From Deltaproteobacteria bacterium (lineage in GTDB: Bacteria; Myxococcota; XYA12-FULL-58-9): a stretch of DNA of 64,000 bases. This document shows, piece after piece, positions 37,168 through 41,249 of this stretch. Under the pieces are notes generated by a model. It did not search any database. It had not been told where the DNA came from and saw only the letters and a program-made list of their open reading frames with translations. Location of the stretch: assembly GCA_016218825.1 (NCBI GenBank), contig JACRCV010000006.1, forward strand, positions 6,797 to 70,796, read 5' to 3'. Numbering within the stretch: position 1 is the stretch's first letter; each line of letters starts with the position of its first letter. The translations under genes were made by a program, and so were the position numbers.

Positions 37168-38652
37168 CTATTCTCCGAGCGTCGCGAGCATCGCCGCCAC
37201 CGCCGCCGGCATCTCGTGCTGCGCCGCCATCTCGCGCATGTGATCCTTGAGGTAGCTGTGCTCGATCAGGAGCTTCAACACGTCGACGAGGTAGGCGCGC
37301 TTGGCGGCCGGCAGCGACTCGAGGCGCGCGAACTTGTCGTGAAAGAACGAGCCGGTGGCGCGCAGCAGCGCGCGCCGCACCTCGTCGATCGTCATCGATC
37401 GCGGTTTGACCACGGGCTCGATGAGGTTGTAGCGCGAGTAGTCGCGGCTGGTGACGTGCGCCTCGAGCTGCGGGTAGAGATCGGCGTAAGGCCAGGGCGT
37501 CAGCGCCAGGAAGAAGGCCATGTCGGGCGCGTACCACTTCGCGAGCTCGACGGTGCGGGCGATCGACGCCGGTGTTTCGTCGAGCGTGCCGAGCACGAAT
37601 GAGGTCTCGCTGACGATGCCGTGGTCATTGATCATCGCGATCGCCCGCTTGGCGTCGGCGACGCGGGTCTCCTTCTTGTACAGGTCGAGGGTCGCCTGGC
37701 TCGTGGACTCGACGCCGACGTAGATGTGCGAGATGCCGGCGGCGCGGTACTGCCCCAGGAGCGCCGCGTCGCGCAGGATGTCGTCGATGCGCGTCTCCAT
37801 CAACAGCTCGACGCCGACCCGGCGGTCGATGAGCAGCCTCAAGATCTCCTGCCAGCGGGTCGGATCGACCGTCGGCGTTTCGTCGGCGAGCATGGCCACC
37901 TGGACGTCGAAGCGGTCGCGCAAGCGCTCGAGCTCTTCGACCACGGCGAGCGGCCGCCGGCCGCGCCAAGAGCGCGCCCAGAACTTCTGCTGGGAACAGA
38001 ACGAGCACTGCTTCTGGCAGCCGCGGGAGGTGCTGATGATGGCGAGCCGACCGGCAGGGTGGGGGCGATAGAAGTAGCGCGGCCAGTCCACCGCGTCCCA
38101 GGCCGGCGTGAGGCGATCGAGATCGGCGCACAAGGGCCGGGGCGGGTTCTGCACCGCGATGCCGTCGCGGCGCCAGGCGACGCCGCGCACCGGTCCCAGA
38201 TCGGTCGTGTGCGCTGCGCCGGGTGTCGCGGCGACGGCCGCGACGACCTCCGCCAGGGTCTGCTCGCCCTCCCCGCACACGATCGCCTCGACGGCCGGGT
38301 CCGCGCCGAGGATCTCGCGCCACATGAACGTCGGGTGCTGATTGCCGAGCAGGGTCAGGATGCGTGGATCGACGGCCTTGGCGCTACGGCAAACCCGGCG
38401 AGCGTCGGGCTCCATCGCGGTGATCGCGGTGACGCCGACGACGTCGGGGCGGAAGCGCTCGATCTCCTTGGCGATCGCATCGTGGTCATGGCGAAGCGAC
38501 ATCGCGTCGTAGAGGTAGACCTCGGCGCCCGCCTGGCGAGCTGCACCCGCCAGGTAGACCAGGTGCAGCGGCAGCCACACCCCGGCGGCCTCGACCACGC
38601 CCGTGTGGTACGGGGGGGTGATCAGCATCACGCGGCGGCGAGCGCTCGTCAT
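37168..38652 (-). CDS. Cobalamin-binding radical SAM protein (class B methyltransferase-like)
   Basis: N-terminal B12-binding Rossmann (PLHLVYLAG, PDVVGVT, GNQHPT); STSRGCQKQCSFC (CxxxCxxC); LADE, GVES; no signal peptide. Confidence 0.93.
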   Translation of the reverse strand: MTSARRRVMLITPPYHTGVVEAAGVWLPLHLVYLAGAARQAGAEVYLYDAMSLRHDHDAIAKEIERFRPDVVGVTAITAMEPDARRVCRSAKAVDPRILTLLGNQHPTFMWREILGADPAVEAIVCGEGEQTLAEVVAAVAATPGAAHTTDLGPVRGVAWRRDGIAVQNPPRPLCADLDRLTPAWDAVDWPRYFYRPHPAGRLAIISTSRGCQKQCSFCSQQKFWARSWRGRRPLAVVEELERLRDRFDVQVAMLADETPTVDPTRWQEILRLLIDRRVGVELLMETRIDDILRDAALLGQYRAAGISHIYVGVESTSQATLDLYKKETRVADAKRAIAMINDHGIVSETSFVLGTLDETPASIARTVELAKWYAPDMAFFLALTPWPYADLYPQLEAHVTSRDYSRYNLIEPVVKPRSMTIDEVRRALLRATGSFFHDKFARLESLPAAKRAYLVDVLKLLIEHSYLKDHMREMAAQHEMPAAVAAMLATLGE

Positions 38653-39170
38653 CGGCGGGCGCCTCCGGACGCGGCGGGGCCGGGCAGGGGCGCGGCGGGA
38701 GCGTCACTCGGGGGCGCGACGGTGGTGGTGGCGATCGTCCGGGCGCGGGCGACCCGATACGCGCCGGCGGCGCGCGCGACCTCGAGCTCCATCACCATGT
38801 CGGCGACCACCAGCGGCCCCGGCTCGCTCCCCGGAGCGGCGCCCCGATCTCGATACCGCCAGCGCTCCTCGGTCCTTACGATGACCAACTCGGGAGCCCG
38901 CTCCTCGACGCCGACGACCCGAAAGGCGAGGAGCTCGGCCTCCAGGACCACGCCGGCCGCGCGCTTGAGATCGATGAGGGCGCGGACCCGTTGGACCTCG
39001 TCCGGGCGCGCGACGCCGGCGAGGTCGGAGCTGTCGCCGGTGCCGTAGGCATCCGCGAGGGCGTCGGCGTAGGCGCGCACCGCGCGGGCCGCCGGGTGAT
39101 CGGCCTGCGCCGGCCGGCAGCCGGCGAGCGCGTCGGCGAGCAGGAAGAGCGCCGTCGGGGCCCGGCTCAC
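38649..39170 (-). CDS. Small putative lipoprotein (173 aa), possibly NTF2-like
   Basis: GTG 39170 overlaps the ccsA stop and its TGA overlaps the radical SAM ATG; lipobox LAGC; helices followed by beta strands (RTEERWRYRD). It is the tail of track ORF 38649-39827. Confidence 0.72.
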   Translation of the reverse strand: MSRAPTALFLLADALAGCRPAQADHPAARAVRAYADALADAYGTGDSSDLAGVARPDEVQRVRALIDLKRAAGVVLEAELLAFRVVGVEERAPELVIVRTEERWRYRDRGAAPGSEPGPLVVADMVMELEVARAAGAYRVARARTIATTTVAPPSDAPAAPLPGPAASGGARR

Positions 39171-39985
39171 GGCGGCGTGCCCACGAGATAGAAGGTGTGG
39201 ATGGTGGGGGCGGCGAGGGTCACGACGTACACCGTCACCACGGTCAACGCGAGCGCCACGAAGGTCAAGTACGCCATCCGCGCGCCGGTCCAGCCGTGCA
39301 GGACCCGCAGGTGGAGGATGAGGCCGAAGACGATCCAGGTGGCGAGCGAGCTGGTCTCGATGGGATCCCAGGCCCAGTAGCGACCCCACGACTGGTGCGC
39401 CCACAACGACCCGGCGGCGATCATGACGCCGAGGCAGAGAAAGGCCAACAACAGCAGCTGGTGAGCGTACAGGTCCAAACGCGCCGGCGACGGCAGGGAC
39501 GCGGCAAAGCGCCGCTCGCGAGCCTTCGCGAGGTAGCCGGCCGCACAGGCGGCGGCGAGGATGGTCGTGGCGCCGAAGAGCTTGGCGAAGCCGATGTGAA
39601 GGTAGAGCCAATAGGACTTGAAGATGATCGGCACTTCGCTCTTGAGCGCGAACGAGTCGACGCTCAAGCCCAAGAGCAGGAAGGCCGCCGGCAGCACCAG
39701 CGCGCCGAGACCACGCAACGCCGGCGCGATGCGGACGGCGACGACGTAGACGACGACGAGCAGGAAGGCGTTGGCGGAGAGCACCTCGTAACGCGTACTG
39801 AAGGGGCCGTGGCCCACCTCGGCCCAACGCAGCGCCAGCGCCAGGCCGTGCGGGACGAGGGCGGCGAGGGCGGCGAGCAGAGCGAAGCGTGCCAGGGCCG
39901 GCCGACGAAACGCCAGCCAGGCGAAGAACGCCGCGGTCGCTGCGGCGTAGAGAGTAGCGCCTGCCCAGAAGGCCACGGATTCCAT
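39167..39985 (-). CDS. ccsA: System II cytochrome c synthase CcsA/ResC
   Basis: WWD motif GSLWAHQSWGRYWAWDPIET, WLYLHI, LHLR, multiple TM segments; ATG follows GAGGT. Confidence 0.93.
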   Translation of the reverse strand: MESVAFWAGATLYAAATAAFFAWLAFRRPALARFALLAALAALVPHGLALALRWAEVGHGPFSTRYEVLSANAFLLVVVYVVAVRIAPALRGLGALVLPAAFLLLGLSVDSFALKSEVPIIFKSYWLYLHIGFAKLFGATTILAAACAAGYLAKARERRFAASLPSPARLDLYAHQLLLLAFLCLGVMIAAGSLWAHQSWGRYWAWDPIETSSLATWIVFGLILHLRVLHGWTGARMAYLTFVALALTVVTVYVVTLAAPTIHTFYLVGTPP

Positions 39986-39992
39986 CTCGACC

Positions 39993-41249
39993 TCAGCTCT
40001 CGGGTCGCCGGCCCCGGATCTCGGACCGCAGGCCACTCGGCAGGTCGGTCCATTCCGCTATCATCAGGTCGCGCCCCCGGGAGACGTACACCCGGGCGGC
40101 GATGCCGTGTCCGGGCGCGGCGAGCTGGGCGACGCCCGCCGGGCACGCGAGCAGCGCCGCACCCCCGAGCACGAAGAGGAAGCCAAAGAAGACCGCCGGC
40201 ATCGCCGGCGAGCGCCCGTAGGTGAAGCCCGACCAACGTCGCACCGACACCAGCGTCGCCGAGGTGGCGCCGAAGGCGAACGCGCCGCCCGGCTGGAGCT
40301 CGATCTTGGCGCCACGTTGCTCCAGGAACACCCGGAGGCCGCCGCTGCCGAGCGGGTCCGAGAGCGACCGCGTCGACGCCAGCGACAGTCGGGCCGGCGT
40401 GCCGTCGGGCGCGTGGAAGGCACCACTGGCGTGGGTGTCGTCGTCGTGGTGCAGGCGAAAGCCCCGGCGGCCGGTGTCCGCGAGCTCGATCTCGAGCGCC
40501 AGGCCGTGCGGCAGCGCCTGAAACAGGGTGACGGCGCCGGCGTCCAGTCCGTGCACGCGGTCGACCGTCCCCTCGACGAGGACTCGATCTCCCGCGGCCA
40601 CTCGGAGAAGGCTCCTGCGGTCGCGATCGAACCCACGCTCGTGAAGATAGGGATCGAAATCGAGGAGGGTCACGGCCAAGGCCGGTGGGTCGACGTCGGC
40701 GAGCGGCCCCGGGGCGCGACCGAAGACGACTCGGGGGGCGTCGAGGCGCGCGGTCTCGTCGACGGTGAGCTCGAAGGCGCCGCCGTCATGGTATGCCCGC
40801 TGTACGGCCACGCCCGCGATCAAGAGCAGCAACCCGGCGTGGAAGGCCCAGCCGCCCCACAGCGCCAGGCGGTTGCGGAACAAGACCGCGCCGGCGCCGC
40901 GAAACCCGTGGCCGGCCAAGAAGACGCGAGGGTCGGCGTCCGGCCTCTCCGGGAGCTCGAGCGCCCCCCCGGCCGGCAGGCCGCGCCACAGCGCCAGGGT
41001 CCGCCGGGTACGGTCGAGGGTGCAGGCGAGGGTGCTCGCGAAAGTCAGCGCGACGAGCACCAGAAACGGTGGCGCGACGAAGGGCTGGTCGATGCCGAGC
41101 GCCATCCCCAGGCCGGTTGTCGCCACGCCGGCCTCGGTCGACGGCAGCCAGGCGAACGCGGCCACGTAGGTGGCGAGCGCCGCCACGATCGCCAGCGCCA
41201 AGCCCGACGAGCGCAGCAGGCGCCAAACCCAGCTCAGTATCTTGGCCAT
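39993..41249 (-). CDS. resB: ResB/CcsB-like cytochrome c biogenesis protein
   Basis: TM1, F..PPF..LVAL..STLACTLDR, WAFHAGLLLLIAG (conserved His), large periplasmic domain, C-terminal TM. Confidence 0.8.
   Translation of the reverse strand: MAKILSWVWRLLRSSGLALAIVAALATYVAAFAWLPSTEAGVATTGLGMALGIDQPFVAPPFLVLVALTFASTLACTLDRTRRTLALWRGLPAGGALELPERPDADPRVFLAGHGFRGAGAVLFRNRLALWGGWAFHAGLLLLIAGVAVQRAYHDGGAFELTVDETARLDAPRVVFGRAPGPLADVDPPALAVTLLDFDPYLHERGFDRDRRSLLRVAAGDRVLVEGTVDRVHGLDAGAVTLFQALPHGLALEIELADTGRRGFRLHHDDDTHASGAFHAPDGTPARLSLASTRSLSDPLGSGGLRVFLEQRGAKIELQPGGAFAFGATSATLVSVRRWSGFTYGRSPAMPAVFFGFLFVLGGAALLACPAGVAQLAAPGHGIAARVYVSRGRDLMIAEWTDLPSGLRSEIRGRRPES

Follow-up and report, generated by a model that had tools for sequence, protein, structure and literature searches.

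A locus in the window (the whole 64,000-nt stretch analysed, from Deltaproteobacteria bacterium, GCA_016218825.1, contig JACRCV010000006.1, positions 6,797 to 70,796 of the forward strand) is best read as a specialised branch of System II cytochrome c maturation, with a cobalamin-dependent radical SAM enzyme as its partner. We favour, at a probability of roughly 0.55, an explanation in which a side chain of heme is changed by the enzyme, and a distinct clade of CcsBA installs the product. That the enzyme works for this maturation machine is very probable. In the proposed mechanism, the enzyme, equipped with SAM, a [4Fe-4S] cluster and cobalamin, would take a hydrogen from a tetrapyrrole side chain in the cytoplasm. 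The remodelled CcsBA would export the altered heme and attach it at normal CXXCH motifs in large multiheme cytochromes of the cell surface, a step to which we give about even odds, and a general maturation system with plain heme would run alongside. No description of the enzyme, or of its link to CcsA, was found in the literature searched, in which subscription papers were sparsely covered.

Organisation of the locus

A reading of the window from its letters alone (hereafter the sequence-only reading) had described an operon comprising resB, ccsA, a lipoprotein gene and a radical SAM gene, divergent from the gene of an 80-heme cytochrome. Its coordinates, gap and overlaps all match those found here (Table 1). 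The spacing from resB to ccsA is 7 nt, the junction of ccsA with the lipoprotein ORF is a GTGA overlap, and that of the lipoprotein ORF with the radical SAM gene is an ATGA overlap; translational coupling of the enzyme gene was seen in other phyla as well. A promoter scan of the 205-nt divergent gap found no sigma-70 consensus site.

Table 1. Components of the locus, with positions numbered from the first letter of the window.
Feature	Position	Strand	Remarks
resB/ccsB, System II heme-channel subunit, 418 aa	39993..41249	-	Pfam ResB; TM-His1 presumably H137
ccsA, Lys-less clade, 272 aa	39167..39985	-	H130, H225, H263; WAWDPIET; clade-specific K135
Lipoprotein, NTF2-like (ARC6-IMS/Tim44 fold), 173 aa	38649..39170	-	optional accessory
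Cobalamin-dependent radical SAM enzyme, BchE-related, 494 aa	37168..38652	-	CX3CX2C at 212-219; signal peptide absent
Divergent intergenic region, 205 nt	41250..41454		between resB and the 80-heme gene
80-heme cytochrome, 3111 aa, TIGR01904 repeats	41455..50790	+	likely client

We collected 80 loci around relatives of the enzyme. Among these, ccsA was present in 59, resB in 54 and the lipoprotein in 39, indicating that the arrangement of the locus is not due to chance. The small ORF is a genuine lipoprotein, as had been proposed, and its lipobox cysteine falls within the set of positions conserved at 90% or more in an alignment of 19 sequences. A structure model gives it an NTF2-like/ARC6-IMS fold, and in Verrucomicrobiota it is fused to ResB. 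The lipoprotein counts as an optional accessory, as do a 4-helix CopD-like protein, a LuxE-like ligase and second B12 radical SAM enzymes.

Coupling of the enzyme to one clade of CcsA

The maturation proteins were compared to the System II CcsBA/ResBC of H. hepaticus (7s9y; E = 1.4e-36), with which they share the ResB plus CcsA composition, the four histidine ligands and the WWD loop. H130, H225 and H263 of CcsA align with H761, H858 and H897 of 7s9y (P-His1, TM-His2 and P-His2, respectively), and the loop WGxxWxWD is present in the window protein (WAHQSWGRYWAWDPIET). H137 of ResB, which from its position and from background we take to be TM-His1, is invariant in 24 homologues. Since the ligands and the loop are kept, the two proteins are predicted to act as heme exporter and synthase.

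In contrast to the H. hepaticus protein, the window CcsA is a member of a separate, single clade, whose active site appears from the aligned residues to have been rebuilt. The pocket positions K842 and N890 of 7s9y correspond to I209 and T256, and both are replaced clade-wide. The lysine at the WWD position is found in 89% of 47 outgroup CcsA, while Ile, Val or Thr stands there in 94% of 91 clade CcsA; the clade has Pro instead of Asn at the N890 position, and a new Lys five residues past P-His1 in 75% of its members. The reading of the WWD motif as DPIET (WAWDPIET) is thus confirmed, and turns out to mark the whole clade, not a quirk of one gene. The score of the window CcsA against TIGR03144, 133.3 bits compared to a cut-off of 187.6, is a weak criterion, since many ordinary CcsA also fall under this cut-off.

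According to section 9 of PMC10663686, K842 and N890 belong to the lining of a proposed pocket next to heme vinyl-2. This assignment is a docking proposal, which applies to peptide and heme alike and places K842 in the C1 pocket (PMC10663686). DPVE is also the reading in CcmF, a protein that attaches normal heme, so the loss of the WWD lysine is no proof of a changed heme; together with the placement of K842 in the C1 pocket, this leaves the idea that the lost lysine was a ligand of the heme propionate unsupported. A complex prediction with the enzyme, CcsA and two ResB pieces scored 0.00, and bears neither way.

Comparison of genomes shows that the coupling of the enzyme to a dedicated cytochrome c maturation system, as judged from gene content, is stronger than the sequence-only reading had claimed. 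Three samples were used, centred on Myxococcota (201 genomes), Desulfobacterota (221) and Acidobacteriota (151), 573 in total. A clade CcsA was found in all 37 enzyme genomes (18/18, 14/14 and 5/5 in the respective samples), often far from the enzyme gene, the counts being based on thresholds picked post hoc and on related, non-independent genomes, with some weak CcsA matches lying outside the trees. Fisher tests overstate the significance for genomes so related, and are given no weight here. Clade CcsA without the enzyme was found in no genome among the 573 of the three samples. Two genomes outside the 37 (G136 and G198) have only a diverged, hemA-linked paralog, and are without clade CcsA. 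One family of 27 genomes is split, with 14 having both genes and 13 neither. The enzyme and clade CcsA genes are separated by at least 0.9 Mb in G109, 172 kb in G196 and 660 kb in G429; genes so far apart and yet co-occurring indicate more than physical linkage. For nine of the ten loci without a nearby ccsA the genome carries a Lys-less CcsA elsewhere, and at the tenth we found resB, the lipoprotein and a ccsA broken by the contig end. The constant presence of the B12 radical SAM enzyme, with the NTF2 lipoprotein and the 4-helix protein as optional additions, is a further difference from the H. hepaticus system.

The enzyme family and its possible substrate

The enzyme combines an N-terminal B12 domain (PF02310) with PF04055, its residues C212, C216 and C219 are invariant, and the earlier observation that it carries no signal peptide was borne out. 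On sequence grounds it forms a family of its own, apart from BchE, the anaerobic Mg-protoporphyrin IX monomethyl ester cyclase (TIGR02026). BchE is nevertheless the nearest named family (388.5 bits, the next family being at 142), and the two share domain order, 36-38% identity, 88 columns at least 90% identical in both, and a YHxGxxExAGxW segment that is mostly gapped in other aligned B12 radical SAM enzymes. By contrast, 30 conserved columns differ between the two families, and the window enzyme, as well as five other members (271-399 bits), stays below the TIGR02026 cut-off of 481.35, compared to 781 and 816 for true BchE. In the tree, BchE (100/100) and the enzyme family (99/97) are on separate branches, with the enzyme outside the BchE clade and BchE as a possible sister (support 91/75). 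BchM, which makes the methyl ester substrate of BchE, was over the cut-off in 0/5 genomes. The TIGR02026 score, the separate branch and the absence of BchM rule out that the enzyme is BchE, from which it also differs in its cytochrome context. Over 2,500 protein clusters that lie close to the enzyme family, many of them tagged as chlorophyll cyclase in non-phototrophs, are thereby identified as something else.

By analogy, the substrate of the enzyme is probably a tetrapyrrole, either heme b or protoporphyrin IX, which would be bound as BchE binds the Mg-protoporphyrin ester. The position of diverged members nested within the enzyme family, immediately upstream of hemA, also speaks for our reading. 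BchE oxidises a porphyrin propionate, and is a non-methylase (PMC9204698). A BchE-like oxidation or rearrangement of a propionate and a methyl transfer to a side chain seem about equally likely to us, methylation thus being just one option for the chemistry. The class B radical SAM methylases TokK, CysS, MgmA and BchQ/BchR share with the enzyme the B12-binding and radical SAM fold (Foldseek TM 0.6-0.7), but its identity to the solved ones is only 17-20%. None of the methylase families scored above 143 bits against the enzyme, and no diagnostic residue was found.

Could the enzyme serve this machine with no lasting change to the heme? It might deliver ordinary heme to CcsBA, or run a parallel heme-synthesis step, for proteins with 20-80 hemes. 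HemW, a radical SAM heme chaperone, provides a precedent for such a role, and the BchE-like character of the enzyme, which makes porphyrin binding plausible, would fit it too. The diverged paralogs adjoin hemA, one tier-2 gene comes after a HemY-like oxidoreductase (a match below the cut-off), and the clients offer an ordinary CXXCH context. We nonetheless consider heme supply rather unlikely: both the B12 domain and the CX3CX2C core are preserved intact and with high conservation, matches to hemN and hemH over the cut-off occur in the host, hemH is present in the two Geobacter genomes together with an AhbD-like gene (~450 bits compared to a cut-off of 500), and the rebuilt CcsA pocket would be left unexplained.

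Fusions of the enzyme with LuxE (three, one of them from Thermincola) hint instead at acyl or lipid chemistry. One further protein, P0175, joins the enzyme to a START-like lipid-binding domain, a LuxE-like gene is present at 16/80 related loci, and the NTF2-like fold of the lipoprotein has a cavity. The enzyme and a LuxE-like ligase might then act on something that the maturation system or lipoprotein clients need, be it a lipid, acyl chain or small carrier peptide. However, 64/80 loci lack the LuxE-like gene, none turned up in the host genome, and lipid-acting families reach at most 142 bits compared to 388 for BchE, making such a substrate improbable. A metagenome scan for the LuxE fusion gave one match, weak and partial.

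Client cytochromes and the Geobacter loci

The 80-heme protein contains 63 CX2CH, 4 CX3CH and 13 CX4CH motifs (17/80 non-canonical), with a spacing of 171 aa from residue 1194. It is likely a client of the system, with a cytochrome type that is independent of it: TIGR01904 and OmcE-like cytochromes also occur without the enzyme and clade CcsA. When adjacent cytochromes were searched against solved structures, one of four matched a cytochrome (OmcE, 7tfs).

A further version, drawn from the sequence-only reading, has the system dedicated to CX3CH/CX4CH maturation, or the enzyme adding methyl groups to the apocytochrome prior to export. The expected co-occurrence held in one direction, as all 18 enzyme genomes of the Myxococcota-centred sample have a CX4CH domain, and the changed CcsA residues do line the proposed first-cysteine pocket. 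It failed in the other: the enzyme is missing from 47/65 genomes with a CX4CH domain, one of which consists of a single contig and has 27 matches. CX4CH cytochromes adjoin ordinary DPKET ResB-CcsA pairs in two genomes (G002 and G046), and are found at 18/80 related loci (14/52 where the upstream flanks are long), while the 27-heme gene adjoining the Geobacter sulfurreducens enzyme gene has zero CX4CH. Dedication to CX4CH is thus largely refuted, and dedication to CX3CH/CX4CH together is unsupported. No shared sequence context or recognition motif was seen around 1024 heme motifs near the clade, which makes the apoprotein a less likely substrate and leaves this version very unlikely as a whole. 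The Wolinella CcsBA paralogs for CXXCK and CX15CH (PMC10663686) are similar in that an extra synthase gene lies beside its clients, besides a general system, but in the present case the clade tracks an enzyme, and no unusual (non-CXXCH) motif. Least credible of all is the hitchhiking of an unrelated gene on a mobile cytochrome island, since, despite a patchy distribution (the family is in 0/20 close relatives, the sole match, G020, falling in the BchE clade), the co-occurrence holds with genes hundreds of kb apart, a single enzyme gene is retained with three CcsA paralogs, and translational coupling is found here and in other phyla.

A similar neighbourhood, which the sequence-only reading had placed at Geobacter large-cytochrome loci, is real and was found in G. 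sulfurreducens. This organism has one enzyme gene (AAR36280.1, GSU2888 by position) and four ResB-CcsA pairs, three of them Lys-less and the other DPKET; cytochromes encoded beside its clade CcsA genes are, for example, GSU2887 and OmcG/H/A. Each Geobacter ResB/ResC pair was previously suggested to be dedicated to neighbouring cytochromes (Aklujkar 2009; PMC2700814). The clusters described there are the same loci as here; the main text nowhere has "radical SAM", and does not set the three Lys-less pairs apart from the DPKET pair. The question it left open, why Geobacter has four ResB-CcsA pairs, now has a testable answer, three of the four being in the enzyme-linked clade.

If the enzyme does alter heme and the CcsBA clade does install it, these three pairs would serve a new-heme pathway, and the new heme could tune the redox potential or the stability of extracellular wires. 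Tentatively, and at somewhat less than even odds, we propose a c-type cytochrome pathway that is widespread and has gone unrecognised. Its BchE-like cobalamin radical enzyme would produce a new heme (with an altered propionate or an alkylated side chain), to be placed in giant surface cytochromes by the dedicated CcsBA clade. Geobacter and other metal-breathing bacteria may thus build giant cytochromes with chemically altered heme. In metal-reducing bacteria, the multiheme cytochromes are assumed to contain plain heme c; should part of them receive a different heme, the heme counts, the redox potentials and the results of heterologous expression would need to be re-checked. A preprint ties GSU2887 to the low pathway, and an earlier study had connected GSU0702 with lower potentials, links that are suggestive only. 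The G. sulfurreducens enzyme locus was transcribed in 4/4 RNA runs.

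The four-gene unit and its neighbourhoods

All gene coordinates and overlaps of the resB-ccsA-lipoprotein-radical SAM unit are as the sequence-only reading had given them. Its Pfam domains are ResB, Cytochrom_C_asm, and B12-binding with Radical_SAM, and the divergent 3111-aa cytochrome has 63 CX2CH, 4 CX3CH and 13 CX4CH motifs. The 173-aa ORF has no Pfam match; its lipobox cysteine is conserved, and the predicted fold is an NTF2-like domain (pLDDT 89) nearest to ARC6-IMS and Tim44. In five Verrucomicrobiota loci, probably through one event, the ResB frame runs on into the lipoprotein as a C-terminal fusion. 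The window also holds a unit for a 7-heme cytochrome, a gluconate-dehydrogenase-subunit-like protein and a GMC oxidoreductase, convergent with the enzyme gene, and a separate 33-heme cytochrome gene downstream of the 80-heme gene.

Of 240 related stretches the top 80 were retained; in these, the enzyme gene is accompanied by ccsA in 59, resB in 54 and the lipoprotein gene in 39, and by accessory genes for a 4-helix CopD-like protein (46), a LuxE-like ligase (16) or a second B12 radical SAM protein (11). Cytochromes with at least 10 hemes occur in 38 of these 80 loci, and CX4CH cytochromes in only 18; where at least 8 kb lies upstream (52 of the 80), the counts are 45 for ccsA and 14 for CX4CH. 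The 116-aa four-helix membrane protein, found in L059 and 45 other loci, has conserved HD..W and KH motifs, is weakly CopD-like, forms its own Atlas cluster of 409 members and may bind heme. OmcE nanowire homologues are found among the cytochromes near clade genes (7tfs, E = 4.8e-25).

Coordinates of the features discussed (L, loci; G, genomes; C, contigs)
Feature	Location	Remarks
resB	window 39993-41249(-)	
ccsA	window 39167-39985(-)	
lipoprotein ORF	window 38649-39170(-)	
B12 radical SAM enzyme	window 37168-38652(-)	
80-heme cytochrome	window 41455-50790(+)	
7-heme cytochrome unit	window 33743-37119(+)	
33-heme cytochrome	window 52212-54842(-)	
second family member in host	L001:8397-10469 (G000 C118)	47.6% identical; directly after small triheme cytochrome gene
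second host cluster	L002 (G000 C36:15000-25200)	beside 45-heme CX4CH cytochrome; three ResB-like, two CcsA-like, 4-helix gene
diverged family members upstream of hemA	L128:7655-10552, L129:7874-10763	YH segment lost, as are several conserved residues of the core
four-helix protein	L059:9555-9905	
Cys-segment protein	e.g. L059:8191-8424, L069:9193-9423	
B12 radical SAM genes after ccsA	L058:5030-7680	also L011, L038, L048, L176, L177
OmcE homologue	L068:4429-6540	
ccsA in two frames	L206/L216 (G078 C7:238018-238838)	
intergenic element	L237:3098-3145	

A distinct CcsA clade that accompanies the enzyme

Enzyme-adjacent CcsA sequences form a single branch (SH-aLRT 99; 50 versus 20 rows), seen again in a second tree, both trees being built on subsets of sequences with matches below 100 bits mostly left out. 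When 91 clade sequences were compared with 47 outgroup sequences, the WWD position was I/V/T in 94% of the clade and K in 89% of the outgroup (DPIET-type versus DPKET), and the N890 position (7s9y numbering) was P in 66% and N in 70%, respectively. A Lys follows P-His1 by five residues in 75% of the clade, the outgroup's conserved Tyr and Gly are gone, and all four histidines are retained. K842 and N890 belong to the docked pocket for the first cysteine, next to vinyl-2 (PMC10663686). CcmF likewise reads DPVE at the WWD position, which cautions against over-reading the loss of Lys. One clade ccsA lies in two frames, by assembly error or decay. In six loci, clade ccsA of the DPVEV subgroup is followed by unrelated genes for B12 radical SAM proteins, one or two per locus, which suggests further tailoring steps.

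The enzyme (at least 460 bits) is present in 18 of 201 genomes of a sample labelled Myxococcota-centred by phylum inferred from neighbouring loci. Seventeen have clade CcsA, the eighteenth has a two-piece copy 14 kb off, and the only other CcsA match, in G003, is outgroup by tree. In the Desulfobacterota-centred sample (enzyme in 14 of 221), the top 20 CcsA matches come from 11 of the 14, and in the remaining three a clade member lies no more than 5 kb away; the five best matches from enzyme-less genomes are DPKET, HemX type, and of the 207 genomes without the enzyme a motif pattern matched two (an outgroup gene in one, a non-ccsA frame in the other). The five enzyme genomes among 151 in the Acidobacteriota-centred sample give the top 5 of 16 CcsA matches, the other 11 being outgroup. 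Pooled, clade CcsA is present in 37/37 enzyme genomes, three of them seed genomes, under thresholds chosen post hoc, with a CcsA profile made from linked genes, weak matches partly unclassified, many genomes incomplete and kin not independent. Counted by tree membership the figure is 37/39, two genomes with a hemA-linked paralog alone being without the clade. Ten loci with no ccsA nearby (one genome already in the first sample) served as a forward test: Lys-less CcsA was found elsewhere in nine genomes, and the tenth has a contig-end ccsA fragment with resB and lipoprotein. In G109, G196 and G429 the genes for enzyme and clade CcsA share a contig, widely separated.

Geobacter and the host genome

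The large-cytochrome neighbourhood that the sequence-only reading suggested for Geobacter does exist: G. sulfurreducens has the row luxE-like, resB, ccsA, 4-helix gene, enzyme and 27-heme cytochrome. The row fits GSU2891-2890 (PMC2700814) and the 27-heme GSU2887 (bioRxiv 2022.05.22.492868), so by position the enzyme would be GSU2888. We counted three Lys-less ResB-CcsA pairs, a single DPKET pair, and a HemX-type gene that is also DPKET, in agreement with the four pairs plus one of PMC2700814. RNA reads (four runs, two studies) cover the unit end to end, mainly on one strand, which fits the gene direction for a dUTP library. At one short intergenic element, which probably has further copies in the genome, many RNA reads show loose ends. 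In G. metallireducens the lipoprotein additionally sits between resB and ccsA. The enzyme is present in 11 of 12 genomes of the genus; the twelfth, a smaller assembly of 3.0 Mb, also has no clade member.

The host carries the system twice in part, with a second enzyme and a second cluster, and also has CcmC, hemN and hemH; the family was found in none of 20 relatives. The second cluster further includes a gene that may be distantly related to the lipoprotein, and one in which MFS- and spermidine-synthase-like parts are fused; the latter is seen again at L144.

The enzyme family and its proposed role

The top NCBIfam match of the enzyme is BchE (388.5 bits, under the cut-off of 481.35; runner-up family 142), and two BchE controls gave 781 and 816 bits. 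Of 1.84 billion representatives searched, nine proteins exceeded 620 bits; below them, full-length matches start near 480 bits and include 581- and 680-aa proteins taken to be BchE by length and domains. In a 47-sequence tree, whose bootstrap had not fully converged, the family is one branch (99/97) separate from BchE (100/100), a possible sister; the alignment has 88 columns with 90% identity or more in each group and 30 that are conserved yet different. Members include ABB30840.1 (G. metallireducens), AAR36280.1 (G. sulfurreducens) and Aromatoleum/Azoarcus proteins. Anaeromyxobacter-family-like genomes supply three diverged members, of which two are nested within the family, each directly upstream of a confirmed hemA. 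BchM was above cut-off in none of five genomes tested. Several genomes from the host's phylum carry true BchE genes (L103-L112, L123-L127), in keeping with the phototrophic Myxococcota.

BchE itself is a non-methylase and catalyses oxidation at C13-1 of Mg-protoporphyrin IX monomethyl ester (PMC9204698). While gene anatomy, family limits, co-occurrence, the altered pocket and transcription in Geobacter are observed, the role is proposed: the likeness to BchE, the hemA-linked members and the heme-handling partner suggest that the enzyme would act on a tetrapyrrole, and the rebuilt CcsA suggests that altered heme would be installed through it in the finished cytochrome. A literature search, limited to accessible main texts, found no description of the enzyme or its link to CcsA; the system is real, widespread and apparently undescribed. 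We count it as a variant of System II cytochrome c maturation; should the heme prove modified, it would be categorically new (probability about 0.45).

That the enzyme serves heme supply, for which HemW is a known comparison, is unlikely. Lipid or acyl chemistry together with LuxE is less likely still; the Thermincola potens member is fused to a LuxE-like domain. Motif or apoprotein specificity is very improbable: contrary to the proposal of a system dedicated to CX4CH motifs, TIGR01904 is found in 65 of the 201 Myxococcota-centred genomes, all 18 enzyme genomes included, and the enzyme is absent from 47 of those 65. In one family the domain is in 27/27 genomes and the enzyme in 14/27, CX4CH cytochromes adjoin DPKET pairs in G002 and G046, and 1024 heme motifs near the clade have no common sequence context. 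That the gene is a hitchhiker, recurring as it does with clade CcsA, is the least probable reading.

The enzyme-LuxE fusions P0181, P0172 and P0173 end in His/Cys-rich repeats (CSTVAD). In five Geobacter-type loci, the LuxE-like gene is followed by that of a protein of 73-77 aa whose Cys segment is similar; this protein might serve the ligase as acyl carrier or substrate. Further single-frame fusions of family members (P0170, P0171, P0175) add a signal peptide and outer-membrane-barrel-like region (two) or a START-like domain (one).
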